Positions 12,439-44,239 of a stretch of 64,000 nt of DNA are shown one piece after another. The position numbers were made by a program, and so were the translations under genes. The number at the start of each line of letters is the position of its first letter. Positions within the stretch are counted from its first letter, which is position 1. Source of the DNA: Psammoneis japonica (taxonomy: Eukaryota); contig QPGO01000068.1 in the NCBI GenBank assembly GCA_008632985.1, positions 248,001 through 312,000 on the forward strand, read 5' to 3'. The notes under the pieces were generated by a model. That model was not told the DNA's origin, did not search any database, and was given only the letters and a program-made list of their open reading frames with translations.

Positions 12439-14029
12439 GAGAAATGGGAAAGCCTACAGTATATTTACAATAATGACAGTCCATGTTGTTCCTCTCTTTA
12501 TCGAGAGAGTTTTCGTGCTTGCGTTGCAACTTACTTCCACTTGCGTTCATATGACTTGGTCCTCTGTTCTACCACATACTGTTACTACATTGACTGGCAA
12601 TTCCAGTCAAGGGTGCCGTATTAGAACTACTGTGCACGGGTAGTGGCGAAGCTAGTAGTAGTAGTAGCTACAGTAGAGAGTAGAGGCGACAACAGTTCGG
12701 GAAGAAGTAGTTCAAGTTAGTCTCTACTAGCTAGCTACTGGGTCATTTGCAGCCATCGTCTGTCTTCCAACACCATAGAACCTCTAATTACTCTAAAAAT
12801 GCACTCTCGGGATTGATTGCGCGGATGTCGGAATCACATTTCAACGCCAACAACTCGACACTCCAAGTCAAAACAACACATGGTGCCACTGCGTTGTTGT
12901 GTCGACCAAACACACCAAGGACTTGTGGAGAATAGGAAGTTCTTGAATGCACAAAATGACAAGAGAGTTGATGCACCACTCTTGCTTGTTTTGAACCTTG
13001 GGCAACCTGCTTCCTCAAGTGGTGCACTCATTGGTTGATGTCACATTTGACTCTGTGGCTGGTTGAAAGGCTGGTGGGCAGCATTCTCATGATTCACAGC
13101 TTGAGGCATGTTGGTGCACAAACAAATGTGCAATGCCACCTTTGGAGCGTGCTGCTTGCCAGATCTGGAGTCGTCAGCTCTCTGTGCCCAACCTTTGCCA
13201 GCTGGACTCTCTGTCACAATGCACCTTCTCCTGTTGCTGTGGTTGCCTCCATCAAAGTCCCAAGTCCAGACTGCCCCAACCATCAACAAAGCAGCTCCCA
13301 CAGAACTTTTCTGCCTGCTTGTTCCCCGCCCCACAAAGCAGCTTTGGCAACAGCACCACCCAGAAGCTGCCGCCTGAGACACACCCAACTTGGGGTTGTG
13401 GTGCTGGGCTGTTCACATCACAAAACAAGGTGTTTCTGGTGCTGGGGCTGGCAATGTGGAGCCCTTCCTCTGCAAGCTTCCCAGGGGCATGCCAGTGCCT
13501 CTAGAGTGCCAGCCCAACCACAAGAGTCATGCAATCCTTGCCAGTGCCTTGCCAGCAGGGTGCTGTGCCAAAGCTGCCACAGCCTTGGACACCAGCAGAT
13601 TGACGCCAATGCAGCCATGGCAGCAGCACTTTGTGCCACCAGCATGGAGTGCAAGCTGCCTGGACTGCCCCACCCCACACATGACAGCCCCTCTTGCAGC
13701 TGACATGTGCCAACCTGAGGGACATTGCCATGAAAACTCCCCGAGCCAAAGCAAGAGCTTGCATGTGCTCCCCTGTTGGCACCCAAAGTGCTGCATCACT
13801 GCAAAATGGTGTGTGCTTCCTCAAGCTTGCTCGTTGGTGCCATGGGCCAACTTGTTGGCTCACCACTGTGCCCCACAGCACAAGCAGCAGAGCTCACACT
13901 TTGCCACGCCATGGCTCTGGCTGAGATGACAGATGTGCACTCCACACAAACAACAACGCATGCTCCTAAACAACAGCCCATTGAAATTTGCTTGCTCACA
14001 TCACAAATGTGTCAAACACAACATTCTCA

Positions 14030-15165
14030 GACATGGGTGTGAGTTGGCCGGGGCAGGGCCAGTTGGTCGCACACGTTTGGGTTCAATGTGACTGTGCAAC
14101 TGGCCATGCCCTGCAGGAAAAGCTGTTGGGTGGTTGGTGGGTTTCAGGTTGGTGGCGTGAGTAGAAGCAACAAAGCAAAAAACATGGCACAGGTCAAAAC
14201 GTTGTAAAATGACGTGACAACAAACAATCAGAAGAATCCCAACTTGACCCAGGAACAAAGTGCATCAATTTTGTTCAATCAGTTTAATCTTGTCTGGAAA
14301 TGCCTGCTTGCAGCTCCGTGAATGGCATTTGAGTTGTTTGCCATGGTGTTGTTGTGCATCATCGTGCGCTGTCATTTGGGCTTGAGGGTTTGGGGGGGGG
14401 GGGGGGGGGGCACTTTGCAATGAAAAGGGGAACACCCCAAAAAAAGCGGGGGAGAGAGAGAGCATGATCTTGTCCGAGAAAACTGTTGATTCTCATTGAA
14501 CAAGTTCCTCAGCAGAGAAAAGACCCTCTGCCCGGCTCAACCAGAAGACAGCTGAACCAAGGCAAGAGACATGCAGCCTCAAACCAGTGGTGTGACTGCA
14601 GCTTGCAGTTTGTGGTGCACTGTCATGGTCAGTGCTGTGCAGTGGGCCCCAGCTGGCAGCAGTTGGTGCATGGCACACACACACACTGGCACTGGCTTGT
14701 GGCCCATCTCGCAGACAAAACAAACTGGGAAGCCCCAGCTCCCCCCCCCCCCAACCCTTGAGCCTGCTGTCATTGTGCGCAAAAGATGGGGTTCCATGTC
14801 ACCCATGGTGAATCTGTTTTGACAATGGTGGATGTTTGGCTGCATTCAATCTGAGGACAATTTGAGAAGTGCTTTGGGGCGTGACCCTGTTTGGACCATT
14901 AAATGGGGGTGTTTTTTGTGAAGATTCCAGACTGTTTTGTGGGTGTTCTGTCACATTGTTGAGTTTGGGTGTGTGTGTTTGAAAGGCACAAGAAATTTCA
15001 ATGATGTTTAAAAGCCTCAGGAACACACATAAATCCATGTTCCCTTCTGATCGTGCAGATTGTGCACCGGTGAAAATCCACTGCAGTCGATCCACTCAGC
15101 AGCAATTCTGCACGCGCATGTTCTGCTCTGCTTGCACCTCACACATGCGCACACGCCTGCACAGT
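14030..15165 (+). repeat. Dispersed repeat (probable DNA-transposon terminal region); inverted copy at ~44850-45545
   Basis: Colinear reverse-complement matches, e.g. CCCTGCAGGAAAAGCTGTTGG, GCTGCATTCAATCTGA, TTTGAGAAGTGCTT, CACACGCCTGCACAG. Confidence 0.85.
14377..14765. mobile_element. Mutator-like MITE with G-rich TIRs and a 9-bp TSD
   Basis: GCTGTCATT at 14368-14376 and 14766-14774; TIRs GGCTTGAGGGTTTG(n) / C(n)AACCCTTGAGCC; the homologous copy has a single empty site at 45238-45246. Confidence 0.85.
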
Positions 15166-15260
15166 CTAATGACCACATGCTGTGTGCACAAGAAAAAACA
15201 ATTCACGTGATTTTGTCATGGAACTCGCATTCACCAAAAGCTTTGGGGGGGTGGGGGACC

Positions 15261-15637
15261 ACAAGCAGTGAGCACCTCCATTTTGTGGGAAAAAACCATC
15301 AAATGATTTGTGGGTGCATGTGTTTCAATGACCACATCTCTGCCACAAACCCTGTCATCCAAACAAACCCTCTGTGCCTTGCCCCCCCCTTTTTTGCATG
15401 GGAGGAATTTGTTTCACTCATTCTCTTTGTCAGAAAATGCAATCTGAGAGGACTGGGCACAAGTTTCTGGAGAAAACAAATGGCAGAACCAAATTTCTTG
15501 CACACAAAAAGGCAGGTGAGGCACTGAGGGTTTGTTCGGATGATGGGGTTTGTGGCAGAGATGTGATCATTGAAACATGTCCACCCACTCAATTGTTTGA
15601 CATTTTTTTTCACAAAATGGAGGTGATCACTGTTTGT
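15261..15637. mobile_element. Foldback/hairpin MITE-like element with ~175-bp inverted arms
   Basis: CAGTGAGCACCTCCATTTTGTG...CACAAAATGGAGGTGATCACTG; arms pair nearly to the centre, and many mismatches are TG versus CA. Confidence 0.8.
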
Positions 15638-16695
15638 TGCTGCAATTTAGAAAGTTCCATGTTGACTTTTGACACAGGGTTTTTGCATGCTGCATCATTT
15701 GTGCACAGAGAGAACTAAATCTCAACCTTCAACAATGAAATTTGTGATGAATCACTGTCACAACAGAGCTGACAATGCCACACCCTTGGAGCAAACCCGC
15801 AGCAAACAACTGCCTGTCATGTTTTTGCACAGATTGTGCATGATGTGACACTTTTGTGCTGTGTTGCATTGACGTGCGCATGCATGACATGTCACAATTC
15901 CTTTGCTGTGCGTGGTGGTTGAAGGCAGGGTTAAAAACGTTGATTTTTTTCTGGTGGCAAGCCCAATGTGTGTGCGCAATTCAATGTGCACCACAAGTGG
16001 CAATCAATGCTTGCACGTTGTTTGTTCATTAAATTGCAACACATGAAAAATGTGCACACTCTGCATGAAAAATCTTCTACAATGTGCAGATCCTGTGTGT
16101 CATTTTGTGTGCCTCCAAACACAAAGGCCACTGTTGCAGAGTTTTGCAGCAATGACACTCAGTTTTTAGTGCTGTGACAAGTGACAGCTCTTGGAATGTT
16201 TCTTGAAAAGCAAAGGAGGAACAGGCACTCCTCATCAAGGGCTTGACAAAGCATGACAAACTTGCAAATGCAATGCTGGCGTGCAAGCCTGGGGGACAAC
16301 ACAAGAGATGTGCCCAGCATCAGCTGGCATGTTGATCTTGATCCTGACTTTCAAACATGTGCTTGTGGACCAAAAAGTCCATTCAGATAATTCACAAATT
16401 TGTCAAGATGGGAAGACTGATTGTGCAAGCTGACGGCACAGGTGGCAACTGGCTGGCAAGGGGGCCAGATGGTTGATGATGATGTTTTGTTGCTCAGGGG
16501 GGTCATTGAGCAACAAGGCAAGTGACCAAGTGATGAGGCGAGTGACCCAAGTGGTGAGGCGAGTGGCCAAGCAACAAGCTGAGTGACAAATTTACACAAC
16601 AGAGTGACAAATTTACATGACGGAGCCCTCCACTGCATGCCATGAATGCAGACTGGCATGCTGCACATGCACAATCATTTGTTTCAGGCAATTTG

Positions 16696-16823
16696 AATTT
16701 GCACATTGTTGTGTCTGTGAAGCACACAATGTTGAAATGCCAGTGGTGAAAGCCACACAATTTGCACATTGTTGTGTCTGTGAAGCACACAATGTTGAAA
16801 TGCCAGCAGTGAAAGCCACACAA
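16696..16823. repeat. 63-bp tandem duplication
   Basis: AATTTGCACATTGTTGTGTCTGTGAAGCACAC... at 16696 and 16759, differing at CAGTGG versus CAGCAG. Confidence 0.9.
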
Positions 16824-19579
16824 GAGTCATCACACTGATGTTTCCAACATGCGCAGGGCCCCACCAGTTAGTTGCACCAGATTGATGAGCCACAACAATG
16901 CCCAAAGCACTGCAAAACAACAACAGCAAGCAAAACAATGCAACAAAAGCAAAACAACAATGGGGCATTGTTCCACCACTGTGGAGCAGTTGAAGCAAGC
17001 AAGAACAAGGGTGGCTGCAATGAACAAAAGCAATGCACATGCACAAAACTTGTGGAAACAGCATGAAAATGGCACAGTGCAAAGCAACAGCATAACACCA
17101 ACTCTCTCAACAAATCACATGCATCCAAATTAGTCACACACGCAGCTCTCACCTGTCCAATTGCTGCACATCAGTCAATTCACAAGCAACCGTGAGTCCA
17201 TGGCCATGCAGTCATTGTTAAAATGAGCATTGTGTGTGTCAAATTCTGTGCCAAAAGAGGGTCCCAGAAAGTTGATTCAAATTGCAACTGTTGCATGGAA
17301 TCCTGCATGGCAAGTGCAAGCATTGGCTGCTCTGGCTGGAATTCACAAATGCACACAGTCATTTGATCCTGCTTGGCCAGTTGCCCACGCAACTGATGAC
17401 ACTGAAGACTTCAGCCCACCATCACCATGCTTCAGACAATGCCTGAAGACATGGCCCCTGAAGCCGATCAAAAATGTCCTTGGCTGGTGACAGTGGGCTT
17501 CAGTCATCACTCTCGCCAATTGTTTGCAGTGTCTTGAACATTGAACAAGACCCAAGCAAGAAAGACAAACTCATGTGTTCCATTGTTGCTGGCTTTGTGA
17601 AACATGCCATCCTTGATGGAGATGGGACAAATGACAAAGGAGTGGGCAAATTGCTGCCACCCACAACTTTTTCAGAGATGAGTCACAACAAGAACATGGG
17701 AAAAGACCTCACAAACTTTTTCAACAAGTTGAAAGAGATGGGAAAAGTTTGCACAAAGATGAAGCTGCAACAATGCTGCTGTTTTGTTTGACAGATTGCT
17801 CAACTCAAATGCAGAGTCTCACCCTTTGTGCAAGACTCTTGTGAAAAGGCAGTGCTGCACATGTTTTAAGTCAATTTCTCCAAGCAATGATGATGCTGCC
17901 AAGTCAATGGGGACAATGATGTGCAACATGATTTGTGGGTGCTCCTTGGATGGCAAAAGTGGTGACATGGATGTTGACACAGAGAAGGAAGGTGCAGCAA
18001 AAAAGTTTGGTGCATGCTGTTGAAACAAGGTGGCACTGAAGTGGTGGTGTCATTGCCTCACTCACCTTTTGATGGCATCATGAGTCCGTTGTGCTCTCCA
18101 CATGCTGCAAAGTGCACCCAAGAAACTTTGCTCACAAAGATCCCATTTTGGCGTTGGGGTGCTGTTGACTCAACAGAGACAGCAAAGAGCATGAGGATGC
18201 AGTGCAGCAATCAATTCTGCAAGGCCATCATGAGAGCCAAGAAGCACATTGAAAATGCTCATGAGCACACTTGAGAGCCAGCCAAATGCATGCTTGGTCA
18301 ATGGGATGAAACTTTTTTGTTCAACAAAGCATTCGTTCATGCCCTGGAAACCACAGATGCTTGAATGGAGAGTTTGGATTGGCGCATTGCCAAGTGGAGG
18401 TGTGCTGAGTTGAGGAGCGCCAGTGGAGAAGAAAGTGCTGGCGGCATGCAAAAATGGTCAATTTTGGCTCTGATTGGGAGATCAACAAAAACTTGAGGAA
18501 CAAGCTGGGGGGTGTTTTTAGAGAAGCACGTGTTGAGAAAGCAATGTCATGGCATCTTCATGTTGAGGTGACTCTCAATGACAATGACAAACAATTCTTC
18601 AACTGTGCAATGCTCAACAATTTTGTGAAAAACAAGCCTCAATGAAACAAGGGTTGAAAGAAGGTCATGGTGAGCTGCTCTGGAAATTCATGGAAATGTC
18701 TTCGTCGTCATGTTCGGTGGATCCAAAGTGACTGTGTCAGGTGCAAAAGCAACGAGCAACTTGAGAGCAGTGCAGCTGCTGCATTTCTTGCCAGTGCTTG
18801 GCCTCTCTGGAAACACTTTGGGAACTTTGCATTGTTGCACTTGCACTCTTGTGTCACCCACCATCTGAACAGGAATGACAGTCATTGCCCTGCTGGCGGC
18901 ATCGCTGAAATGTCATTGTCAAGATTTTCTGGTGTGCATGTGAACGATGCTTCCTGCGCGGTGCTCCCTGTGGAAACCTTGGTGCGGTCTTTGGGTTCAA
19001 AACCAAGGTGTCAAGATTGAAGAAGATCAGATGTGCACGCGGTCATGATGCCAACATCTGAGTTGTCAAAAAATTCCACAACTTTTTTGTCAGCAACTTT
19101 GGATTTGTTTGCAAAAAAAGAGATTTTCAAACAACAAAAAAGTTGGCAACAAATGCAGTTTCTACTTCCTGCAGTGTTGTGGGTGATCTGATCAATCAAC
19201 ATCAACTTTTGACTCTTTTTTTTTGCACAAAGCTGTTCAAAAATTGCAGTTGGTGATTTTTTGGATGTTGAAGTGCAGTGCAGTCATCACCCAAGGTGCA
19301 AACTCTTGAGCTCTCACACACAGAAATCTGTGGGCCCATGTCACATGGAGCCCTGCCTGGTGCTGGAATGCACTTGCTTTGCTGTTGGATCTTTGGAGAA
19401 AAATGACAGCAACAACAACTCTGTTGTGAAGGAATGCAACAAATGCAACCCAATGACACCAGGGCCAGAATGCACAACTTCTCTTGACAAGCACATTTGT
19501 GGGAAGGCCACATGAGTGCAGAACAATGGCAAGCAGCAAAATGGCTGCAAGGCATGCATTTCATGCAACGCTGCCATGC

Positions 19580-20008
19580 AGTGTGTGTTGCACTGACGCA
19601 CAGCACAAATTGTGCATGCATCAGGATTGCACACACTGCAGCAGTGATGGCACATGCATGAAAGCCCAGGGGGGGCTCTGTGGCTCAGCAACTCAGCGAG
19701 ATCTGAGCAGCAGTGAGTGTCCATGCAAGCAGTCTGTGTGAACATTGACAGGCCATCAATGCAAGCATGACAAAGCACAGCATGAAGAAGGTAGCAGCAC
19801 ATGTGGGCATGCATGGTGATGCATGAATGGAATCAGAGAAACTGGTCACAGTTGATTGCGTGCAATCCAAAATGTAAACTGGTGGGAAATTTACATGATT
19901 GCCTGTTGAAATGATTCCACTTTCCAGACAACAGACTGGTCTCATGTTTTTCCATGAAACAACACTTGCAACCTGCTTTTTTTTTTTGCCTGACAGTGCA
20001 TGAGGCAC
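19580..20008 (+). repeat. Diverged direct repeat; second copy at ~34741-35085
   Basis: Shared CTCTGTGGCT, AGCAGCAG(T/C)GAGTGTC and GCCTGACAGTGCATGAGGCA in the same order. Confidence 0.7.
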
Positions 20009-23000: not shown

Positions 23001-23179
23001 GGCTCTCAAGTTGTGTTTCCTTCCACGTCATGTGGCAGCAACAAAGATGCAGGAGCTTGTCTTGTCTCTTCAAGGCAACTGGTCAATCAGCAAAGCAAAA
23101 ATTTTGCTGCCTTGAGTCAGCACCCTTTTGCTGTGATGTTTGAAATTTCAAGTTTGACTGTTGCATGCAAGAAGTGACA

Positions 23180-24530
23180 CAAGGCCCCAAGCTCACAAGA
23201 CAAGCCTGGGAGCACACCAAACCATTGCTCTCAAGGTGTCATGTGGCCCCTGCTGGGGATGTTCAGTGCCCTGAGCCTGCTCTTGTTGCCACCCTTCCAC
23301 TCTCATGTTTGAAATTTCTGGTCAAAAGTTGGCAAGGAGAAAGTGAGGTGAGGCCACAACTGCACAAGACAGGCCTCAGAGCACTCAACCACAGTTCTCA
23401 AGGTGTCACCTGGGCCCCACTGGGGATGTTCAGTGCCCTCAGTCTGCTCTTGTTATGCCTGTTTGCCCCACAATGGGGCCCTTCCATTCTTGTGTTTGAA
23501 ATTTCTGATCAAAACTTGGCAGGGAGAAAGAAAGGCAAAGCCCCAACTGCACAAGGCAGGCCTTGGATCACCCAACCATGGCTCTTAAGGTGTCGCGGGG
23601 ACCCCACTGGGGATGTTCAGTCGGTGCCCTCAGCCTGCTCTTGATGTGCCTGTTTGCCCCACAATGGGGTCCATCTGTTCTCAAGTTTGAAATTTCTGGT
23701 CAAAACTTGGCAGGAAAAAGAGAGTTGAGGCCCCAACTGCACAAGACAGGCATTTGAGCACCCAGCCATTGCTCTCAAGGTGTCACCTGGGACCCACTGG
23801 GGGTGCTCAGTGCCCTCAGTCTGCTCTTGTTGCATCTGTTGGCCTCACCTTTGAAACCTCAATTTTCTTGTCCATTGTGTGCAACAAGTGATGAAGAGGC
23901 ACAAACTGCACAACAAGACAAGTCTTGGAATGCCCAACCATGGCTCTCAAGGGGTCACTCGGGACCTGCCAGGGATGTTCGATGCTCTCAGTCTGCTTTT
24001 GTTGCATCTGTTCACCCCACAATGGGGTCTTTTCATTGCGATGGTTAAAATTTCAAGTTTCTTGGACATTGTGGTGGGCCATTCAAAAAGTGAAATGAGG
24101 CTTGAACTGCACAAGGAAGGCAATCATGGTTCTCAAATTGCCCCCTTTGCTTGAGATGCACTGGAGATGTTCAACACTCTCAGCTTGCAATGTTGTCATG
24201 TTTGTTGGCTCTGCCATTGGGTCCTTCCACTCTGGGGGACAAAGTTTCATGATGTCTGAGCAACCCTTTTGTGAAACAAGTCACATGACAACACAGGTGC
24301 ACAAGACAGGCCCATGACCACTCAACCATGTTTCTCAGAGTGTGCCCTGGGACCCACTGGAGATGTTCAATGCCCTCAACTTGCAGCTGTTGTGCTGGTT
24401 GGCTCTGCCATTGGGTCCTCCCACTTTGATTGTTGGTGTGTCAGTGATTTGCTTTTGTGTGTGAAAAGTGACATGACATGACATGACAAATGCACAAAAC
24501 ATGCCCATGACCACTCAACCACAGTTCTCA
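23180..24530. repeat. Tandem array of about 8 diverged 170-200-bp units
   Basis: Recurrent CCCCAACTGCACAAGACAGGC...CAACCATGGCTCTCAAGGTGTC...CCCACTGGGGATGTTCAGTGCCCTCAG near 23184, 23352, 23540, 23729, 23898, 24099, 24295, 24487. Confidence 0.85.
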
Positions 24531-25399
24531 AGCACACTTCATCTGATTCAAACAGTGCTCAACATCCAGCTGTCAAACACAACATGACAGCTTGCAAACA
24601 AAAAATTGTGCAACAATTCAAGCTGAAAGAAAAACTCATTCAAGGCAACCCAAATCATTGAAATCTGTGCAAACAGAAAATGAACGGAGCCAAAAAAATG
24701 ACTTCTTGCACAATGATGCAGAGATTCACAACCAGGCTGACTGGCTTGGCATTGCACCAGAAACACACCATTGCTGCCACACAAATCAACACAAAACACA
24801 AGATGCATCCAAGCATCCTGTGTGAAATGACAGCATTGCAAAAATGCACCAACAATGGACAGACTGTGCGCACCCTGACAAAGAGAAGAAATGAGAAAGG
24901 CAAGAGTGCTAAAGTGAGGTTTGAAAGCAAGCCGTTTTCAGAGCAATGCAAAAAACTGATGCAATTGCACACTCTTGAAACTCAGATGAATTGGCACAAT
25001 TTGCATGAGCAGGAAGCACCACATTGCAAGGTTGCACAAAGGCAAGTGGAGGCAGTGTGATTGTGAAACAGTTGCCAAAAACATGCAAAACTCATGAATT
25101 GTCTGCTTTCCTCTCATCAGAGGCATTGGTGTGGCCCGACTCACACAACGAAAAAAGCCACCTGCTGTTGTTGAAAGATGAAACCTGCTGGGAGTCAGAC
25201 ACCTGTCCAAGCATGGACACAGATTGGAGAACAACACCATGCCATCACAGCCAAGAACAATGAGATGATGCCATGTGGACCACAAAAATCTGTGCCAAAA
25301 GTGCGTGCAAGCACAAATGAAAACACAATGGAGCAAAGACAAGAAAGATTGCATCAAGAACATGCAGCATGAAAAGTTGATGCCATCAGAAGCTCAAAC

Positions 25400-27960
25400 T
25401 GCAAAATGTGCAAATTCAAAATGTCAGCAGCTCAGCTTGTGAAAAAAAAAGATCAGTGAGATTGATTTGCATGGCTGTTCTTAGAAATGAACAACATCAG
25501 CAATTTGTCACACACTTGCTGTTGTTAAGATCAAAAACTGACATTGACCACATTGCACCAAATGTCATTGCTTGCTTTGCAATGGCTTGACAATTGCTGC
25601 CTTGTTGACACATGCAAAATCAAACTTGTCAAGATGAAATGTGCTGTCAGACCAAATTTCATTGAGCATTGTTTCCCACTTTGCCAAATGGCTGGATTGT
25701 CAAAATCAATTCAACAGTGATTGATGAGAACTTGTCAAGAACACAAACCTTCTCATGAAGCACAGAGATTAACTCTGAACAAGAGCAAATGCATTTTCCA
25801 AACAATCCAGCTAAAAAGGACACCAAACTGCAACACTGATGTGTCCATGGGAAATTCGCAGGGGTGTGTGAAGCCATGCTGCATGAAGAATCAGTGCGCA
25901 TGTGTGTGACTGGTGCTCTTGAGTGTTTCAGCAGGCTGTTCTGTCATTTGTCACACCAAAGAAAGATTTGATGGCACAATTTGTTGATGATTTCAGGGAG
26001 CTGAATGAAAGGATTAAAGACTGCCTTGCCCAACTTCTGATGTCCAAGATGTGCCATTGAAGCTTGATGGCTTGTGTGGGTGACATCATTTGCTGGATTT
26101 GAGTGTGGGACGCTGCTGCATTTGACTTGACAGTGGCAGCTGAGAATGTGCATGCTTCCCATGAGGCAAGTGCAAGATGAACATCTCACCAGTGGGCTCA
26201 TGTGACTTGCCTGATGTTTTTCAAGCAAATGTGTCAGGGCTCAGAACTGTTTGAAAATTTGTCATTTGTGCATGTGCGCTTGGACAATCTTTTTGCAGTT
26301 GCCAAAAGCACTTGTGAAAACAACTCAGAGAAACCAGCAGCTGTGCTGGCACAGCATGCACATGATGCTGGACTCAAATTCAATGCATGAAAATCACTTT
26401 TTTTTGTCAGACCCAATTGAAGCATCTGGGTCATTTGGTCAACTGGGACAGAATGCATCCAATGTGCCTTCCAAAGTTGAGGCCATTGAATGCCCTGCAA
26501 AGCCTGTTGACAAGCAGCAGCTGTGCTCACATGTTGGTCTGCTCAGCTGCTGTTGCAATGCATTGCTGAGACACTCTGAAATTTTGGCACCACTTGCAAG
26601 ACTTGCAGGTGGGGCATCTAAATGGGAGTGGACATCCATTGAAGATGAGGCATTTGAAACTGTCAAACTGGCACTGTCAGATGATGTCTTGTCAGTGCAT
26701 CCAGATTTTTCAACAAACCATTTGAGATCCACACCAGTGCTTCTAAATGCCAACTTGGAGCAGTGAGATCACAAGAAAATAAAACTGTTGACTTTTGCAG
26801 CACAAAGCTTGACAATGTGCAAACAAACCGCACAAAACAACAGAGAGAATCACTTGCTGTCATGGAGACATTGAAAGAATTTCAAATGATGCTCCTTGGA
26901 CAATGTGTGATTGTTTGTGCTGATTGCAAAAATCTCGTGTGTGAAGCATTCAGTGCTGGACGCATCATGCCTTGGCAACTGACATGTGAAACATGCAAGC
27001 CAGAACTCCAACACATTGAGGGTTGCCATGACCTTGTCACAGATGCCCTCAGTTGTCTGGTGCTTCTTCCAAGTTTGGAATCTGAGTGCAACCCAACAGC
27101 ATCATAGATGTCAGACGCACATCCTCCACATGAAGCACTTGCTTTGGATGCAATGGCTTCACCTGCAAGCTTCAGAAAAATGCAAAAAGAACAGCAGCAA
27201 AACAAGTGCTTGGCACAGAATGTGCAGCACTCCAGTGCACTCTTTGTCTGCATGTGTCATGGAAAAGATGCATCACCACAGCTGACATGTTGTCAGGACA
27301 AAATCATTGCACTTGAGGCATTGAGACAGCCATCAACTGAGTGGCACTGTGAGCAATCGTGCTGCCCTGGCAAGACAAGCACAGAAACATCCTTTTGCAA
27401 AGCACTTCTGCTGGCCTGGCATGAGAGCTGCAGGGGCACACCGTGTCCATGCATTGAATGCAGTCAATGCCAGAAGACAAAAAACACCAGACACTGCATT
27501 GAGATCAAGTGATGTGGAAAGGACACTTTGCAGCTTTGGGCAGCAACCATGATCCACCCCACAAAAATGTGGTTTGAGATCAAGGAAGTGTCCGCCAAGT
27601 GAGCAGATGTCACAGCAAATGTCACAGAACAATCATGGCCACACATGTGCCTGTGGCCAAGCAAGGTGATTTGTGAAACCATGGCAATGAATTCATGGCT
27701 GCTGAGTTCAGTGACACATCATGATCAAGAATGACTGTGACATCACCCAGAAACCCACAAGCAAAAGAAATCTGCAGGTGAGTGCTGCAATGGAATGTGC
27801 ACAAAAGAACATGTGGTGCATCTGCTTTCAGTGCAAGATGTGAAACTGGACAAGGATGATCCATGGAGTGGCACCCTGTCTGCTGCAGCCTTTGCTGCAA
27901 CAGCTGCAGCACATGCAGCTGCATGGGTGAGCCCTGTGCAGTCAGTCTTCAGATGCACAA
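25400..27960 (+). mobile_element. Degenerate Ty3/Gypsy pol (RT, RNase H, integrase)
   Basis: FVTPKKD..QFVDDFRELNERIK; KHLGHLV; HPDF; DFCSTKL..RESLAVMETLKEFQMMLLGQ..VCADCKNL; HGNEFMAAEF; DPWSGTLSAAAFA, in Gypsy domain order. Confidence 0.85.
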
Positions 27961-28131
27961 CGCAGTGCAATTTTGTCCATTGCTCACTGTGCCAAGTGGA
28001 AGTGTGCCCAAAAACAACAAAATGTGGAACTGACTGTTGTGCAGGTCCAGCCAGAGCAGCTCGTGTTTGTGACACTGCTTTTTTGCATGCAGGATGGTGT
28101 GCTGACAGACACGCACGCACACACACACACA

Positions 28132-31100
28132 TGTTGAACAAATGAAATCATCCACAAGTTGAAAACTGGCAGATGTGCAGTCATGAAGATGTTGAGGACA
28201 TGAAGCCAATTCCTCATCAATTGATCCAATTGATTGCAATTCAAAGGGACTGCAAAACATTCAGAATCCCTCTGTTGAGAGCTGAAAGTCATCTGTTCAA
28301 TGCTCAACACCAATGGGAAACCACTCCACTGCATGCTCACAATTTGTGAATTCACTTCACTGCAACAACCAAACTCTCCATCAGCCCCAATGCTCTGGTG
28401 AACATTGTCAGCTCCAGCTCTGATGGCCAGTGGTCAGGCATTTTGACATCTGCACTGAGCCAGACAGAAGAGATGACCAGTCATCAACATGTTTTTTCTG
28501 ACACCTGCTCAGGCCATCACAGGCATTCTTGACTTTGTCAAAAAGGCACATCAAGCCATTTGCAACAAGGCAGTTGAAACAATCATGGAAAATGGCTTTG
28601 ACTGGACACAATGGAAACTGTTTCTGTTCCTCAAGACCCTCAAAGATCAAGCTGCTAAGAATGGTTGGAATGAAGATGATGGAATCCTGATGATTCCTGA
28701 CAATCCAACAGACATCATGTTGGACACCACCAATTTGTTGACACACTGTGCAGTCAGATTGAATTGGACCTCATCTGCAAATGCAAGTGCTTGTGCATTG
28801 ATCAACCAGTGAGGCCACCACAAGACACAAGGATGCTTGTCCACCTTCTTGTGCACACACTTTCAGAAGGAAGCACGACCAGGATTCCAGTCTGGGAAAA
28901 GCAGCAAGAGATTGTCAAGAACAACAAGACACATCTGTTGGGAAACCTTCTGTCAAAGGTGACAATCCAACACAACTGCAACAAGCACCAGGATGAATCT
29001 CAGCAATCTTGACAAAAGTGTTGGCACAGTCTCAGGCAAGATCATTGAACTCAGTCAACATGTGCTCTTCCTGTTGCAAGCTCTCAAGTCTCATGGTGAG
29101 ACTGTGGAAGATCTTTGACTGAACTCATTCAAGGGGCACCTCACAGCATGTGGCAAGACATTTGTTGATTGCGCACATTGCAAGCAAAACAAGTGTGATG
29201 AAGGAAACAATGTAAACCCTGACAAAATGATGTGAGTGTTGCACAGTTGACAAGCACAAGGAGATGGCAAGGATGGAAGAATGGAGCACCCCATCCCTCA
29301 AGGAGGAGAAAATTCTGGCTCTAGAAGCCAAGGTTGATGCCCTCAAGAAATCATTGCAAGGCAAGAAACCTGATTCTAAGAAGAGAGGAAATGCCAAGAA
29401 TCACAATAAAAGAGGAAAGAAGACTTCTGGTCTGAAGCCAACTTGGTTGGAAAATGATGAAAGACCCACAAACAATCAACTTCTTTACAAGCCCCAACAC
29501 TGGAATGACAAGCCGTGCTGTCATTGTCACAAGGACACAGGCGGAAAGTGGGGTGGAAAGTGGCAGATCCACAAACCATCAGCATGTGAAAGAAAAAGCT
29601 TTGTTGCCCAAAAACTTGGAGGTGCAAAAAAAAAAAGTCCTCCCAAGAAGGGACAAGAGGTGCTGTCGACCAAGAAAACCCAGAAGGACCTCAAGCTGCT
29701 GAAACTGTCTAAAGCTCTCACTGCCATTGCAAATGAAATTGAATCCTCCAATGAAGAATGACTGGTGGAGCAAGGCAGCAAACCTGACTGTGAATGGGGA
29801 ATCCATGGAGTTGCCATTGGCATGATGTCATTGGCAATGTGGCGCGCAACTGCACTTGTGGCTGGACCACTGTTGCTGCCACCAATGCTGTTTGTGTGGA
29901 TGGCTGCAACCTGCAATTGGATCTCCATCACAGTTTGTGAATTGACAAGGGAAGCAATTGCAAATTCTGTTCCAAACAAATTTGTCACCGGAGCTCATGT
30001 GTTGCTGACAATTGTCATTTTTTGTCTCATTGTTCTCCTTGGCAAGGATCTAGAAAACCCAAATCCGTGCTGCACTTCACCACAAAGCAATGGAAGAAAT
30101 TCAGAAGATTGTTGTGGCAAGCCAAGTCAAGCATGCAATGGATGGGAAACAGAGTTGGTCAAAGTGTTGAAAGAAGAATTGATCAACTGTCCACAACCAA
30201 GCAATCCTGAAGAGGGAGAATCAGGTGAGTCCAAGAGTTGTCAAAGCTGATCAACAACAAACATCACAGAAGACATTCAACAGGCTGGCAGGCATGACTG
30301 CAGCACTGGCTGTCCTGGCAGTCTGCATGACAGTCCAGAATGAAGCTCTCAAATGAGAAAACATGACTCAATTTGACATGGATTTGGGACCTGCAGGCAT
30401 GGACAACTGATGCACTGGATGCATGTCCAGCTCAGCAACAGACTTTGTGAGCAAGCTCATGCCAAGTGAGCGAGCTGTGAAAGGATTTGGAGGGTCAAGA
30501 ACAAAAGGAGTCATGACAGGCACATTGCTCTGGCAATGGCATGATGACAATGGGGCTGGCTGCTCACTTGTTTAAAATCCCAAACTCGCACCATGCACCC
30601 AATGGCAAGGTTGTTTGTCTGTCAAGTCCCCAACACTGGGCAAAGACAGAAAAGGACTGCAAGCCAATTGAGGGTGCAGGGAAAGCACAGACTCCAAGCA
30701 GCACACTTTGCACTGGAAAGCCAGAAGAAAAATAAACTTGATGTTCCCCTGAGTCCAGAAACAAACTTTGCAATGTTCAGTCTTGCTCCTGGCTGTCAAA
30801 AGTTCAAAGCCTTCTGCACTGAATGTGGAGTCAATGATGCCACTGAAGTTGATGATCCTGTCAAAGCAAGTGAGGTGAACATTGTGAGCAATGATGAAGA
30901 GGACAATGGTGAGGAACAAGAGCCCAATGACTCAGGGTTGACGACACACACCTGGACCATGGATCCAATCAAGGCTGTCTTGCACCATGCTGAGAGTGAC
31001 AAACATGCCTCAGGGTTGGAGGACAACACTTTGGTTGCCACTCCATTCAATCTGGATGGACCATCTGAGGATGCAGGTGGAACTGGTCCACCTCAAATCA

Positions 31101-34100
31101 TGACAGACAAGGAAGATTGGCAGAAAAAAATGCACTGGCAGAATCATTGAGACACCACAAAAAAGGGACACATCTCATTCTGGTGGAAACTGCAAACAAT
31201 GGCAGAGCAGGGAGTCATCCCAAAACCAAAACATTGGGTGGAATGTAACACACCTGCTTTGCCATTCATGCATGTTTGCCAAAGCAACTGAGCACAAGTG
31301 GCAAGACTGAAACAAGAAGGCTGGTGATCAATGAAAGCCAACTTGACCCAGACAAGTGGTGTCAGTGGACCAAATGGTCTCACCCACACTGGGGTTGATT
31401 GTGCAAATGGCAGGGTTCCTGACAACCAAGCCAAGGTGCAAGTGCGCAACAGTGTGTGTCAACCAACACTCCTGTTTCAGCTGCACACATTTGCAAAAGA
31501 CTGCAAGCACGGAAGAGATGTTGGAAGGCAAGAAAGCTTTTGAGTTGATGGCAAAAAATTGTGGAGTCAAAACTCTTGCTCACCATGGAGACAATGGGAT
31601 GTTCAAGGTGAAGCAATGGGTTCAAGCATGTTGAGACCAAGGCAAAGCCTGACATTTGCAGGTGCCAATGCACACCAGATGAACGGCGCAGCTGAGCACT
31701 GCATCCGCGCGCTGCAGGAACATGCCTGCAGCATGCTCACACATGCAAACTGGCAATGGCCCTCAAGTGTCACCACCAACCTGTGGCCATGCTCTGTCCA
31801 AATGGCAGTCAATGCAACCAATGAAATGCCCAGCTTCCAAAATCCCAAATGCTGCACTCCAACTCAATTGCACACACAAACGGACATCTCAAGCAACCCC
31901 AAGCACTGGACCCCATTTGGGTGCCGGTGCATGTCAAACAAACCACCCATTTCACAGGTGGAAGCAATGACCAAGGGTTGGAACACACTTAGAGACAAGC
32001 CCAATGCATGGCAGGAACATTGCCTTGTTAGTTCTCAATGGAGCAACAGTGCTCGTGAGTCCCCAGATTCATGTGAAATGTGATCCTGGCTTCCACACAA
32101 TGAAGCAGGACAAGTTTGATTCAATGTGGCAAACAAAAGCCAAATTTGTGAGTCAGAGAGAGGTTGACAAACCAACCCAAGGCAAGAAGAAGCAGCTGCT
32201 TGCAACTGAAGCCACCAACAAGTGGAGCATTCCTCAGCAACAGGAAGCAATGCCTCCCTCAGAGAGAGCATCAAAGAAGAAGAGGTTCAAGAAGAATCCA
32301 AACCATGCCAAAATTCTTGACAAAATGCTGGGACCACCCAAAGCCAACAAGCAAGGTGGCAATGCTGCAGCAGCTGGTTTGCTTCCGGCACAGCCAAATG
32401 AACAGGCAGAATCTTCCAAGAAGTGCCTCCACAGCAAGAGGGTGAGTCTGAACCACCCAGAGTGCCAAGGACACCAGAGGTGACAACAAGATCAGGGCAA
32501 AAGAGCCAACCAGTTGAGCGGTCAGTGCAAGCAATGACAGCCAAACTTGGCGCCAATGCCAAAGGGACAACAGAGGGAAAGACATTTTCACCAGTGGCTT
32601 TCTTTCCATGCAATGAATCACCCACATTGGATGACACCAACCCTCTCATGGCACACAAAGCTTCAACAGACCTCAACACCATGCACATGCACCAAGCAAT
32701 GAAACAACAAGATTGCAAGGAACCCATTGATGCAATGCACTGAGAGGTCAAGGTGCAATGAAAAATGGAAACTTTGCCATGGTTCCAAGATCAATGGTGG
32801 CTGACAAGAGAAAGACACTTTTCCAGTCTGCATGGCAGATGAAATGAAAGTGAAATGTCCTGACCCGCTCTGTCAAGAAATGGAGGGCAAGATTGAACAC
32901 AGATGGATCAAGAATGAGAAAAGGGGTTGACCACAGCAAAACACATGCCCCAGTTGCATCCCACAACTCAGTGCACATGCCACTTGCCATGGAAGTGGCA
33001 CACAATTGGCACACCAAGCAACTGGATCATGTGAAGGCCTTCCCACAGGCACTGGCAGAGCGTGAAATGTGTGTGCAAATTCCAAAGGGATTTGAAACCC
33101 ACAAAGGAGATTCAAAAGACTTCATGCTGTGCCTGCATTGGAACCTGTGCAGACAGAAACAAGCCAGATGAGCTGGAACAAATGCCTGGTTAACAAGCTG
33201 ATAAAGCAGCCAGGCTTTGTCCAGTCCAAGGTTGATGAGTGTGCACATCACCAAGGCAAAACAATGCACTTGCTGTGCACTTGGGACAGTCCATTGGTGG
33301 GACCTGACAAGGGAAAAATTGATCAAATTGTCAAGGAACTGAAGGCCTCCAAACTGGACATCACAGCAAAGGGAGATGTGCAAGACTTCCTTGGTGTCAA
33401 CATTGAAAGAAAAAGCAACATTGCTGTGCATCTTGTGCAACCACACCTCATCAACCAGATGCCAATGGACAAAGTTGCCATCCAGGCACTCCAACTGCAA
33501 ACCCTTTGATGGACACTTCAACCACAGATCTGTCATTGGCAAACTGAATTGTCTGGAAAAGGCTGCAAGAAGTGACATTGCATCAATCACTTGTCAATGT
33601 GCACAATTCATGACAGACCATAAAAAGGAACATGGTCAAGCACTCAAATGGCTGGGACACCACATGAAGGGAACAAGAGACAAAGGCACCATGCCTCGAC
33701 CACAAGAAGGCAAAGACTTGGAAGTGTGCGTCAATGCCAATTTCAGCGGTGATTGGGACCCTCAAGGGGCAGCTGCCGATGGTGATGCTGCCAGGTCCAG
33801 ACATGGATGTGTTGTCATGTGCGCCAGACATCCCACACTTTGGAAATCTCAGCTGCAAACAGAGATTGCATTGAGTTCAACCAAGAGTGAGTGCACTGGA
33901 TCATCACATGCATTGAGGAGTGCAACACCTCTTGTGGAGTTGCTCAAGGAAATGAAGCATGATGGCTTCCCAGTGCGCACCTGCAAGCCAATGGTTCATT
34001 GTCAAGTTTTTGAAGACAACAGCAGAGCTCCAGAAATTGCAAAGACCCACAAGCATTGTCCAAGAACCAAACATTTGAGAGCAAAGCTGTGCCACTTCAA

Positions 34101-34661
34101 GGATCCTGTGTCAAGGGGAGAAATGTCTGTCCATCTCACAGACACAAAGAGGGGCAACTCACAGATTGTCTTGCAAAGCCAGCAAATGCAGACATGCTTC
34201 TCTCATTGTGTCCACTGATGATGGGGTGAACCCACTGCATTTTGCTGGGTGTTGAGTGCAATGTCCCAAATTGCAGGGCACATCTCTGATCAGCTGGATC
34301 ACATCAAAGGGCGGTTGCCCAATGTCCTGAACAAGACGGAGTGTCAAATGAATGACATCATCCTCAAGTTGAAAACTGGCAGATGTGCATTCATGAAAAC
34401 ATTGCAGACATGAAGCACCAATTCCTCATCAGTTGATCCAATTGACCGCAATTTAAAAGTTGCTGCAAAGTGTTCAGAATCCCTCTGTTGAGTTCTGAAA
34501 ATGATTTGTTGAATGCTCAGCACCAATGGAGAGCCACTCCACTGCATGCTCACAATTTGCAAGCTCACTTTGCTGTGACAACTGAACTCTCTGTCAGCCC
34601 CAATGCTCTGGTGAACGTTGTCAGCTCCAGCTCTGATGGCCAGCAATCAGGTGTTTTGACA
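28132..34661 (+). mobile_element. Full-length degenerate Ty1/Copia LTR retrotransposon; LTRs 28132-28448 and 34342-34661
   Basis: TG...CA LTR pair of ~320 bp; purine-rich tract before the 3' LTR; gag, protease (FDMDLGPAGMDN), integrase (VSVDQMVSPT, HGDNGMF, HQMNGAAEH), RT (ARLNTDGS, QLDHVKAFPQA), RNase H (WKSQLQTEIALSSTKSE, FEDN). TSD ambiguous because the flank is (CA)n. Confidence 0.93.
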
Positions 34662-36845
34662 CACAGCAATCTGTGGCAGATTGCACCCTGTCACCAGCAG
34701 GGTGCATTGCTGCTTGTCATCCCAGTTCATGGGGAAACATGCAGTGTGCATTGCATTGGCACATGGCACAGACCATGTGCATCTGAGGATTGTGCACACA
34801 GCAGCAGGGTGATGACATGCACTTGGAAGCACAGGGGGACTCTGTGGCTTGGCAACTTGGCAAGATCCAAGCAGCAGCGAGTGTCTGCAAACTGATGCAC
34901 AAACAGGGTTGGAGAAGCTGTGCACAATTGATTGATTTTGTGGAGTCCAAAATGCACACTAACAGGAAATTCACGTGATTTTCATTGACACAATTTTGCT
35001 TTTTGGGGTGGTGAGCCCATCTCACAATTTTCACAAAGTGATTTTTGCAAGCATCTGTTTTCGTTGCCTGACAGTGCATGAGGCATCTGACCTCATTGTT
35101 GCCTTCCTCTTTCTGCACAACTGAACAGACCTCCCAGTTGGGAGTGCAGCAACTCCAGCTCTTTTTTCTCCTGCCATGGAGCTGAGTTTGGGCTGCAAGA
35201 CAACAGAAAGACAACGGGTTGACACTGTGGGGAGGTTGTTTTTAAACCAGCACTTGCAAGGAATTCTGATGCGGGTGCTGATGACATGAGTGCAAAGTGT
35301 TTGGAGTCCTCCTCTCAGCTCAAAGCACAAGTGGCACAGCTGGATTTTTGCCTGCAGGTGGTCAAAACCTCAGTCAGCAAAGCTGTCTGTCGATCAACTC
35401 AAAACATCTAAAGCTGCTGAAGCGCAACCCACCCAAGCAGATGAAGAGAGCTTTTTTAGCCACCCTGCCAACAGGTCTGGGCAAGCCTCCCTTTCCAAAC
35501 ATTGTGTCGGTGAAAATGCTTTCTGACCACCAATTTTTTGGAGGAAGCACCTCAAGCTTGCAAGTGTTGCAGGAAAAAATCTGAGCACTTCACATCTCAC
35601 CCAGTTCAAATGTTCTTGTTTGTCTTGCTCCACAACAACCTGCATGTTTGCTGCATTGCAAAAGCACATTTTGTGGCACCTCAAACCAACAAGCACACAA
35701 CTCACACAAAAACAATGTGTGTTGAGCAGAGCAACAAATGAGCACTCAACAGAGTGCAGGTTGCTCTGCACCAAATCAACACAACCACTTCCAACAGGTG
35801 GATTTCCTGAAGCTCATGTTTGCCTCTCATTTTGTCAAGCTCCTGATCTTGAAAACTTTTCCCCATGCTTGTCAAGACCGATGTTTGATGTGTCCCCAAC
35901 AAAAAACCTGAGTCACCAATTGAAGCACAATTCATGCCAGACTGGAGCCAAGAAAGTGCATCTCATCCCAGCTTGGCCCGCTGACGTGCTGATGTTGACA
36001 GGTTTGTGGCTTCTTGATGCACCAAAGCAGAGGACATTGAAATGGATGAGTGATGTGATTGCTTTCCTTGGCTTTGTGACAACAGCACAGCACAATCAAC
36101 AACTGCAAAGGAAAAGGCCTCTGATGGCAGGAGCAGTGCACTCTGGAAAGGACTTTGTTTTTTCTTTCTGCACACAGGTTGGCTGCTGGTTGATGGCACC
36201 ACATCTGTCATCCAGAGAGTCAGAGAACTAACCCTGATGAGCAGCTTGGTTGCTGACAAATCTGGAACAGATGGCACAATTTTGCACAAAAAAGTGCTCT
36301 GAGGCACCCTCAGATGCAAACACAATGGACTTCTTGTGTGGAATCACTGGACATTCCGAGAGCTGTCCACTTGTTTCCATCCATGTGCAGATCACCCAGG
36401 AGCAAATCCAACAGCAACAAAGCATTGGCAATCACTGTGAGTTGCCCCAAAGGTGGAAACAGAAGCCATTGTCTGTGAACATTGAGCTGCTTGCCCATTT
36501 TTCATCAAGGCAAAGGAACCACTTGTCCTCCAATGACCCATTCAGATGATGACTCAGTCATGAAGTGTTCTTCTCTCTACATACATACAAAGGGTGCCGT
36601 GGGGCCTGTGGCCAGCTGCACAGCAGCATCGAACCCTTGTGCACGACCATCTCTGGCCCCACCCCAGCCAACTTCATGCGGCAACTACACATCAAAAAAG
36701 GGAAGCCACTAAAATGCGGTAAGTGCACACATCCAACATTGAAAAATGGTGGAGTTGCTATGGTTATCAGTTGTCAAGAGAGAACACAACAAACTAACAA
36801 CAGAGGGTGACCTCAAATCAATGTTCTGGCGAGGGCACGCCGGTC

Positions 36846-39162: not shown

Positions 39163-39833
39163 TGGCCAACATTTGTTGGTGACATTTGTTTCTGTTAACA
39201 ATTCCGCGATCGACTTCTTGGGAGACACTGTCTTTGAAAAAACCGCGAGAGTATTTGCCCTTTACCATAAACGTTGCCAAACATTTATTGCCAAAATTTT
39301 ATCATCGTTGATTCATTCTCTCGAAGACAATTGTTCGAAAGCGCTTGTCGCGTTTTCACTTATCGATTTCATGACGACATTGCCAACCTAGTGGCTTCTC
39401 TCGGTGTTATATCTCAATTAACAATGTGACTGGCACCAGTTGCCCTCCCCTGCCCACTCCTTAAATGACTAGTCTTCGACGGCAACTGCCACGATGTGGT
39501 CGGGTTCTCATCGCCAAGCACCGAAGGTGCCTCCTCACGAGGTGATTGGTCATTGGTTGCTTGGCTTTCTGCGTCGGAGTTCTTGGAAGTCTTCGTCTCT
39601 ATCAGCAATAAATGTGTGTTGAGAATATCCTTGCTTGTGGCCAACATTTATGGATGTCATTTGTTTCTGTTAACAATTCCGCGATCGACTTCTTGGGAGA
39701 CACTGTCTTTGAAAAAACCGCGAGAGTATTTGCCCTTTACCATAAACGTTGCCAAACATTTATTGACAAGATTCATCGTCGTTGATTCATTCTCTCGAAG
39801 ACATTTGTTCGAAAGCGCTTGTCGCGTTTTCAC
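39163..39833 (+). repeat. ~197-bp near-identical direct repeat (39163-39359 and 39638-39833) upstream of the LVIVD gene
   Basis: CATTTGTTTCTGTTAACAATTCCGCGATCGACTTCTTGGGAGAC...GCGCTTGTCGCGTTTTCAC occurs twice. Confidence 0.95.
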
Positions 39834-42420: not shown

Positions 42421-42449
42421 ACAGCCATTCTGATGCTGTGCATCTGCTT

Positions 42450-44030: not shown

Positions 44031-44239
44031 GCTGTCAAAAGAAAAGAGGTTTTTGAAATCAAATGCTCACTTGTGGCAGTCAACAAAAAATGGAGTCATT
44101 TTGAATCATGTTGACACACGAGTGGGAAGAAAGAACACAGGTTCTTGTCTTCACCAACCACAGGCCTGTCCGGGGTCCGGGAATCATTTTAATCACCAAC
44201 CCTGCTCATTTCAATTGCCGACAATTGGCGATTGAAATG

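Follow-up and report, generated by a model that had tools for sequence, protein, structure and literature searches.

Three blocks of mobile-element DNA in a single stretch of the genome of the diatom Psammoneis japonica have lost nearly all of their TpA dinucleotides to TpG and CpA, and it is very likely that this loss reflects a hypermutation specific to TpA. The stretch, hereafter the window, comprises 64,000 nucleotides (positions 248,001 to 312,000 of contig QPGO01000068.1, assembly GCA_008632985.1). The analysis covers this one window and positions within it are used throughout. Block 1 (12795-36580, no strand assigned) is a transposon island stripped of both TA and CG, with observed/expected (o/e) ratios, calculated from base composition, of 0.045 for TA and 0.138 for CG. 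Block 2 (40050-45895, minus strand) is a Crypton-like, that is tyrosine-recombinase, element with a TA o/e of 0.044 and a CG o/e of 0.469. Block 3 (52650-64000, no strand assigned) is a transposon island that extends beyond the end of the window and has a TA o/e of 0.05-0.08 and a CG o/e of 0.19-0.30.

In strand-symmetrised dinucleotide tables TA o/e was 0.05, 0.04 and 0.07 in blocks 1, 2 and 3, respectively, compared to 0.56 in host DNA, and CG o/e was 0.14, 0.47 and 0.27 compared to 1.01. The ratio for CA and TG, which are equal after symmetrisation, was 1.91, 1.77 and 1.75 in the blocks and 1.15 in host DNA. TA, CG and TG/CA were the only dinucleotides to move, the remainder being found near their host values, and the G+C content of the blocks (0.47-0.49) was level with that of the host (0.485). 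The combined frequency of TA, CG, TG and CA amounted to 0.2485, 0.2516 and 0.2395 in the three blocks and 0.2408 in host DNA. As this total is unchanged, the signature is a pure redistribution of TA and CG into TG/CA. Block 1 contains 75 TA, where 1650.7 are expected from base composition and 890 from the host-region rate (Poisson P ~1.6e-275), and 182 CG where 1317 are expected. Intervals of 1 kb between 13001 and 36000 had o/e ranges of 0.01-0.10 for TA, 0.07-0.31 for CG, 1.66-2.34 for TG and 1.46-2.07 for CA, while those across host genes spanned 0.38-0.88 for TA and 0.75-1.26 for CG; host-region TA o/e was 0.55-0.60. Hand counts from a sequence-only reading that preceded this analysis (1 TA and 0 CG in 26401-26700; 3 TA and 3 CG in 37561-37620) were reproduced exactly. 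That reading had also claimed that one pattern runs through all three transposon blocks, across unrelated families, and ends near host genes. This was borne out both by the borders described below and by a TA o/e of 0.034-0.08 in each sub-part, namely two Copia elements, a Ty3 RNase H fragment, a 187-bp satellite, the Crypton-like element and unclassified stretches. Repeats of no fewer than four unrelated types (Copia, Ty3, Crypton-like DNA element and satellite) thus carry the signature.

The edges of the blocks are sharp, with borders at 12795, 36580, 40050, 45895 and 52650 and normal flanks. On the left of block 1, the final densely spaced TA is at 12794 and the next ones are at 12933 and 13502, and TA density resumes at 36578, at ~45895 and below ~52650. 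The first ~115 nt of block 1 (12795-12910) contain no TA, yet 8 CG are present, and the TA-free zone seems to extend slightly beyond the CG-poor zone at this edge.

Intact relatives of the elements were used as a baseline. These were metagenome loci, the best 80 of 322 confirmed, recovered with peptide search patterns that favour intact copies. TA o/e of the best 80 was 0.44-1.03 with a median of 0.64, none being near 0.05, and their CG o/e was 0.23-1.48 with a median of 0.91. The comparison indicates that the TA loss is due to mutation and is not a native composition of the elements, and it contradicts the proposition that intact relatives might be equally poor in TA. Relative to the mean of 43 relatives of at least 4 kb, the frequency of TA and CG together in the interior of Copia element 1 was lower by 0.0865, while TG was higher by 0.044 and CA by 0.0415, with TG making up 0.51 of the gain. 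The balance of loss and gain therefore closes, with an even split between TG and CA.

The direction of change was evaluated at conserved codons of Copia element 1, the internal region of which (28449-34350, plus strand) carries an RVT_2 domain at 32854-33506. A set of 69 full-length diatom Copia proteins was aligned to the window by tblastn, and codon columns were kept if at least 25 proteins were aligned and at least 70% of them agreed. This gave 824 conserved columns, at 517 of which the residue is retained. None of the 39 conserved Tyr codons was kept; 15 now read TGY (Cys; Y, pyrimidine) and 13 CAY (His), with the remaining 11 occupied by other codons. Control residues were largely retained (Trp 17/20, Phe 28/35, Asn 20/26, Gln 25/31 and Met 10/13). 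Outside TA, A>G at codon position 2 (Lys, Asn, His, Gln, Asp and Glu) was found at 3 of 222 sites and T>C at codon position 1 (Phe, Cys and Trp) at 1 of 72, or 4 of 294 comparable A/T sites in total. Set against these, the A>G (15/39) and T>C (13/39) changes at the TA of Tyr codons run counter to the possibility that TA changes no faster than other A:T sites. Columns of Ile, Val and Leu now read ATG (5), ACA (5), GCA (5) and CCA (5), which are the products expected of ATA (ATG and ACA), GTA and CTA. Across codon boundaries, T stands before only 1 of the 124 A retained at codon position 1 but before 19 of the 29 that changed to G, and 27 of 36 G>A changes at this position come after C. Conserved Arg was kept at 20 of 59 columns, mainly as AGR (R, purine), and 24 of the 59 are now CAN or TGN (N, any base), including 5 TGA stops. 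A smaller test with 120 shorter homologues agreed with the larger one in that Tyr was kept at 0 of 10 columns. In the Crypton-like open reading frame (ORF) of block 2, Tyr was likewise kept at 0 of 4 columns (now CAC at 3 and CAT at 1), Trp, Val and His were all kept (8/8, 6/6 and 4/4, respectively), and Arg is still CGN at 3 of 7.

Changes shared unevenly between copies show when and on which strand the process acted. When an element integrates, its two long terminal repeats (LTRs) are identical, and TG in one copy opposite CA in the other is the outcome expected if a single ancestral TA or CG was resolved twice, independently. The LTRs of Copia element 1 (5' LTR, 28141-28448; 3' LTR, 34351-34661; both plus strand) are 85% identical, with 262 of 308 columns the same. 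Their differences comprise 9 of these TG/CA double swaps and 3 lone sites of CG or TA, next to 16 transitions of other kinds and 9 transversions. Those of Copia element 2 (5' LTR, 53311-53482; 3' LTR, 60236-60407; both plus strand) are 93.5% identical (159 of 170 columns), and their 8 events consist of 3 TG/CA swaps, 1 TA versus TG, 1 CG versus CA, 2 other transitions and 1 transversion. Pairs of double transitions of any other kind were scarce, 0-3 per alignment. Swaps were also found between the two Crypton-like copies, namely block 2 and a homologous, inverted fragment within block 1 (14037-15164, minus strand; 72-78% identity over the realigned parts), which differ at 24 TG/CA double swaps and 25 sites with CG opposite TG/CA. 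In the 187-bp satellite of block 1 (23121-24530, no strand assigned; TA o/e 0.034) TG and CA are mixed at the same columns, 6 in all, among five aligned units. The swaps in LTRs, Crypton-like copies and satellite imply that the changes took place after integration, at the DNA level, independently in each copy and on both strands. Outcomes are not coordinated by strand: scored in sequence as TG or CA, the Tyr sites of Copia element 1 gave 13 runs in 25 sites, with 13.5 expected, and runs tests on all TG/CA along the blocks gave z values of +2.3, +0.4 and +1.1.

The loss of TA is separate from, and more complete than, the decay of CpG, since block 2 retains much of its CG at a TA o/e of 0.044. 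In fact, the last 896 nt of this block (45000-45895) contain 4 TA, with 57.5 expected, at a CG o/e of 0.74. The claim of the sequence-only reading that a second A:T to G:C process, apart from CpG decay, acts on TpA in the transposon blocks and ends at host genes is accordingly upheld by block 2 as well as by the codon test. Three of the relatives (L021, L025 and L034) have a CG o/e of 0.23, 0.45 and 0.47, respectively, with normal TA at 0.60-0.77, and in other diatoms CpG decay thus appears to proceed without the TpA process. The Crypton-like fragment at 14037-15164 is more CpG-decayed than the element in block 2. In order of magnitude only, the speed of the process can be gauged from Copia element 2, where 3 of 170 LTR columns differ at sites other than pyrimidine-purine (YpR) steps and the TA o/e of 0.08 equals ~12% of the median among the relatives. 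At these values each target base would have been hit about once, compared to a background of ~0.009 changes per site in each lineage, a ratio of the order of 100-fold that rests on three differences. Block 2 and Copia element 2 argue for fast action.

The sequence context of the 143 surviving TAs points to a preference of the process. As many as 114 of them lie within NTAA/TTAN, and the tetranucleotides GTAC, ATAT and ATAC have 0 survivors each, while host DNA contains 74, 70 and 110, respectively. TTAA has 35 survivors compared to 43 in host DNA. Survival of tetranucleotides, computed with the best 80 relatives as baseline, was 0.36 for TTAA, 0.21 for CTAA, 0.11 for GTAA, 0.08 for CTAG, 0.07 for both CTAC and ATAA, 0.03 for ATAG and 0 for GTAC, ATAT and ATAC, which present TAY on both strands. 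An additive fit gave loss constants, according to the base 3' of the A, of 0.26 for A, 0.96 for G, 2.65 for C and 2.93 for T. The order of preference is TAY > TAG > TAA, or an RTA motif when read on the opposite strand, and provides a concrete biochemical prediction for candidate enzymes. Since neither TG nor CA contains TA, a site can be hit only once, and as a result the products are stable and G+C content hardly shifts.

The elements inside the blocks were identified from a Pfam scan of 238 stop-to-stop ORFs and from self-comparison of the sequence, the latter revealing the LTR pairs, the satellite and the inverted segment common to blocks 1 and 2. Transposon domains were found in 6 of the ORFs (RT_RNaseH, RVT_2 in two ORFs, gag_pre-integrase and SH3_retrovirus), in addition to a sub-threshold LRR match. 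In most of block 1 (12.8-26 kb) the scan of block ORFs found no transposon domain, and this part is left without a class. A Ty3-type RNase H remnant lies at 26685-27104 on the plus strand (RT_RNaseH, E 1.2e-15), and the gag-pre-integrase and SH3 domains of Copia element 2 are at 56734-58142, also on the plus strand. The ORF at 33343-34215 of Copia element 1 has 709 homologues, with 48-63% identity among the matches listed, and among the 240 matches listed for the Copia queries all that carry the name of a eukaryote are from diatoms (Fragilaria crotonensis, Chaetoceros tenuissimus and a Thalassiosira transcriptome). Bigelowiella natans is absent from these names, and the relatives of the transposons together with the intron-poor genes point to a diatom host. 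The satellite comprises ~7 units in 23121-24530; Tandem Repeats Finder reports 2.9 copies at 81% in 23292-23831. The recombinase ORF remnant of block 2 (42195-43016, minus strand) has 99 homologues with a best E of 8e-34, and 6 of the 10 homologues tested contain an NDC10_II domain, 5 of them above the Pfam cut-off. The central part of Cbf2/Ndc10 is related to the tyrosine recombinases of Cryptons, which are known from oomycetes and a diatom (Kojima and Jurka, PMC3212892), and on account of this relation and the domain of its homologues block 2 is termed Crypton-like, a designation that falls short of classification. A candidate pair of terminal inverted repeats for block 2 (40103-40125 and 45819-45841) is weak at 78% complementarity. 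In the TA-free tail of block 3, a leucine-rich-repeat-like ORF at 62269-62601 on the minus strand (LRR_14, E 6.8e-06, below the Pfam cut-off) could be a host-type gene trapped in the island or a piece of some other element. The end of block 3 (63609-64000) is an imperfect, CA-rich tandem array of 24-40 nt with GCCAAC/ACATGCC units.

Host genes next to the blocks are unaffected, their ORFs running for 367-764 amino acids without interruption. On the minus strand, these include a gene for an LVIVD-repeat protein (36846-38411), separated from the right edge of block 1 by 266 nt, the eIF3a gene (46958-50034) between blocks 2 and 3, and a prenyltransferase alpha gene (51413-52516) that starts ~130 nt from block 3. 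A direct repeat of 200 nt in host-type DNA (39163-39362 and 39638-39836) is 95% identical and has normal TA. As this repeat is free of hypermutation, short local duplication does not by itself trigger the process. A palindromic motif, CCCGGGACTGAATCCCGGG, occurs close to this repeat at 39864 and 40284 and in inverted orientation at 40094. The 10-mer AGGGTGCCGT occurs on both sides of block 1, at 12609-12620, some 180 nt before its left edge, and at 36589-36601, immediately past its right edge, possibly by chance. A scan of the window found no tRNA genes.

Taken together, we favour, with moderate confidence, a region-restricted mutator that acts on TpA after integration, perhaps an adenine deaminase working on mobile elements. 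Mobile elements, once inserted, would be struck at the DNA level by a mutator that turns A:T into G:C at TpA only and on either strand, each TA becoming TG or CA once and being immune thereafter. This would run nearly to completion, independently of a slower decay of CG to TG/CA in the presumably methylated elements. The signature itself, its direction, timing after integration, strand symmetry, borders and separateness from CpG loss are established, whereas the deaminase, the targeting cue and the defensive role are proposed. The likeliest chemistry would be that an enzyme deaminates adenine to hypoxanthine in 5'-TA-3' DNA, although we advance it only tentatively. The enzyme may be a deaminase of the TadA/ADAT2 type directed to silenced or foreign chromatin, as suggested for the rhizarian B. 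natans, with methylation, histone marks, small RNA and repetition as candidate targeting cues. In the tRNA anticodon loop, the natural substrate of TadA and ADAT enzymes, the edited A is preceded by U or T, and ADAR likewise prefers a 5' U; both preferences fit the 5' T of the TpA motif. The predicted outcome is that all Tyr codons are erased, including that of the catalytic Tyr of a recombinase, and that most ATA, CTA, TTA and GTA codons are lost. Together with Ile, Leu and Val missense changes and the removal of signals that contain TA, among them TATA and AATAAA, this would disable the elements and amount to a defence.

An unlikely alternative is that the thymine of TpA is the target. In marked chromatin this base might be oxidised or otherwise modified by TET/JBP-type activity to 5-hydroxymethyl- or 5-formyluracil, which would then mispair with G or be misrepaired to give T>C. 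5-Formyluracil can pair with G, and 5-hydroxymethyluracil of dinoflagellates is enriched at TpA. The effect on both strands would be equal, as observed, and we know of no such modified thymine in diatoms. Oxidised thymine is expected to yield transversions in addition to transitions, while Tyr columns here read TGY or CAY in 28 of 39 cases, and nothing in the window bears directly on a modified thymine.

This alternative also weighs against adenine deamination, as the end products of the two routes are identical and the context preference may equally be written as RTA on the opposite strand. Four further points count against the deaminase-type mutator as proposed. The baseline for the context preference is host DNA or other elements. 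Copia element 1 is old, as judged from 16 other transitions and 9 transversions in 308 LTR columns, and for block 1 slow accumulation and bursts are indistinguishable. Hypermutated copies numbered 0 among the best 80 of 322 environmental relatives; as the search patterns favour intact copies, this says little about other species or the spread of the process. Finally, the process as a whole is read from end states, and the public run used below to support the bases may derive from the assembled sample, making it better evidence against a base-calling artefact than an independent replication.

It is quite improbable that a single deaminase of dual specificity, acting on both A and C, is behind the TpA as well as the CpG losses. 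Both would be deaminations ending in TG/CA within common borders, and A- and C-acting ADAT2 enzymes of trypanosome and amphioxus are cited in the B. natans preprint (10.64898/2026.01.13.699255). The two losses are however uncoupled, within block 2 (TA o/e 0.044 and CG o/e 0.469, rising to 0.74 at its right end) as well as in the three relatives with CG o/e of 0.23-0.47 and TA o/e of 0.60-0.77. Moreover, methylation-driven CpG decay is ordinary and sufficient to explain the CG half, and part of the genome of Phaeodactylum tricornutum is reported to be methylated (PMC6604790).

Error-prone patch repair in heterochromatin by a Pol-eta-type polymerase, a candidate of the sequence-only reading that would produce A>G at WA (W, A or T), is very unlikely. 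Although Pol-eta is known for A:T mutations at WA motifs, AA is untouched, with an o/e of 1.15-1.22 in the blocks and 1.16 in host DNA. In the AA context of Lys and Asn codons, A>G at the second position was seen at 3 of 72 sites compared to 15 of 39 for Tyr. Changes fall on TA itself and are transitions, whereas Pol-eta mutagenesis at WA is expected to affect A after A as well as after T and to include transversions.

We consider it highly improbable that the signature arose through assembly errors or miscalled modified bases, or that it is a native TA-free composition of these families maintained by selection such as avoidance of a TA-cutting nuclease. Long-read base-callers may err at modified bases, a concern that was addressed using contigs of a public run from 2019 (X1; k-mer depth ~66). 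X1 contains 96% of the words sampled from 29500-39000. One contig matched 24812-27433 with 0 differences in 2622 nt and another matched 32998-36988, spanning the edge of block 1, with 3 differences in 3991 nt. The k-mer depth of ~66 in block 1 equals that at the flanking gene, as expected of single-copy DNA, although diverged copies would look single-copy too. As the depth and accuracy of these contigs are unlike those of raw error-prone long reads, a base-calling artefact is very unlikely, and the concern that reads might not support the bases is answered in favour of the assembled sequence. Long X1 contigs differed from the window at 6 sites, 5 of which are YpR steps; 4 of these are CG versus TG/CA and 1, at 29404, is CA in the window and TA in X1. 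No RNA run was listed as containing the stretch, and a further run from the same sample (X2) covers 36.8-39.7 kb only; no conclusion on expression was drawn from either. Within the two LTRs of an element, sites with identical flanks bear different outcomes, conserved Tyr codons have been replaced and all of the best 80 relatives have normal TA, all of which counts against an artefact or a native composition.

Editing before integration, either ADAR-like on retrotransposon RNA or APOBEC-like on cDNA, has precedent in the deaminase editing of vertebrate LTR retrotransposons (PMC4866542), but its probability here is negligible, being excluded by strand-symmetric outcomes (15 TGY and 13 CAY; TG share of gain 0.51), by LTRs of one element that differ through TG/CA swaps (9 and 3) and by the equal effect on a Crypton-like DNA transposon and a satellite.

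Among known systems, repeat-induced point mutation (RIP) of fungi resembles the process in being a transition hypermutation limited to mobile or repeated DNA, with sharp borders, a dinucleotide scar and inactivation of its targets. RIP however converts C:G to T:A, mainly at CpA, and thereby makes TpA, lowers G+C content and creates stops, while the A:T to G:C changes of the window destroy TpA, leave G+C level and create no stops by themselves; TGA stops in the window are found because CGA decayed. RIP is moreover triggered by duplication and requires a RID-type methyltransferase. A TA o/e of 0.04-0.07, a CA o/e of 1.75-1.91 and unchanged G+C content do not fit RIP, in agreement with the earlier remark that RIP proceeds in the reverse direction, from CpA to TpA, as the window loses TpA and gains CpA.

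Methylation-driven CpG decay would account for the CG to TG/CA half of the signature, with CG depletion balanced by gain of TG/CA (CG o/e 0.14-0.47; Arg to CAN or TGN at 24/59; G>A after C at 27/36). It leaves TpA alone, whereas the TA loss in the window is more complete, even where CG is nearly intact. A CpG-targeted pattern of transposon mutation has been reported in basidiomycetes (PMC3318451). Mutation accumulation in Phaeodactylum revealed a GC>AT bias with CG, CC and TG as mutable contexts, and the term 'transposable' does not occur in the accessible text of that study (PMC6604790). APOBEC3 and ADAR editing and the engineered, TadA-derived adenine base editors share with the proposed mechanism a deaminase chemistry, used against mobile elements. 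In natural cases, however, the substrate is RNA or single-stranded cDNA, editing precedes integration and the two strands are affected unequally. We know of no characterised enzyme in nature that acts as an adenine deaminase on the TpA of chromosomal DNA.

The closest parallel is found in mutation-accumulation lines of B. natans, where two regions of integrated viral DNA received 231 of 302 new substitutions (Mettrop et al., bioRxiv 10.64898/2026.01.13.699255, 2026). According to the preprint, A>G and T>C made up 230 of these 231 mutations, with every such AT>GC change located on TpA, at a rate of ~6e-7 per site and generation that is ~1000 times the background and was seen in some lines only. 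The authors further describe 324 genes low in TpA, among which reverse-transcriptase and DDE domains are enriched, and 124 clusters of windows poor in TpA and rich in CpA+TpG, and they propose an ADAT2-like deaminase (10.64898/2026.01.13.699255). The statement of the sequence-only reading that no description of such a process was known is therefore outdated, since the preprint reports TpA-only A>G/T>C hypermutation. It was the only report of the signature found in a literature search, which returned none from diatoms; in the accessible text of the preprint diatoms are absent and 'CpG' has 0 occurrences.

Both cases involve a change of TpA alone to TpG or CpA, on both strands, in delimited foreign or mobile DNA with normal flanks, and both leave TpA-poor, CpA+TpG-rich windows as a long-term trace. 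The ~100-fold estimate for Copia element 2 is in line with the ~1000-fold rate measured in B. natans. They differ in lineage, B. natans belonging to Rhizaria and the present case to the diatoms on another branch of the supergroup, and in targets, which are giant-virus and virophage inserts there and LTR retrotransposons, a Crypton-like element and a satellite here. The window is saturated, with a TA frequency of ~0.003, while the nucleocytoplasmic large DNA virus (NCLDV) insert of B. natans retains 3.3% TpA. CpG decay accompanies the TpA loss here, a point on which the accessible preprint text is silent, and the TAY > TAG > TAA preference is likewise not reported in that text. The mutation rate was measured directly in B. 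natans, whereas the window is known from its end states. Judged at the sequence level, the window appears to fit the B. natans phenomenon in every respect, in another lineage, with transposons as targets, to saturation and with accompanying CpG decay, and it looks like a second, saturated case of a process of that type.

A wider proposal, which we regard as possible but doubtful, is that diatoms, and perhaps the SAR (Stramenopiles, Alveolata and Rhizaria) supergroup, have a natural chromosomal adenine editor derived from TadA/ADAT2 that converts TAY to TGY/CAY on both strands as a RIP-like defence of opposite polarity, the window being a saturated end state of the B. natans process. Such an editor would be guided to silenced or foreign chromatin and would clear TpA from any newly arrived transposon in a short span of evolutionary time. 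Homology-based annotation of transposons fails in such islands because every Tyr codon is gone, and estimates of transposon age are biased because TG/CA swaps inflate LTR divergence. If the process is the same as in B. natans, a TpA-directed A:T>G:C mutator would serve distant marine protists as a genome defence against both transposons and integrated viruses, removing ~95% of TpA while other sites are barely altered. It would then be the mirror image of fungal RIP, and would imply a natural chromosomal adenine-editing enzyme of a kind so far known from engineering only.

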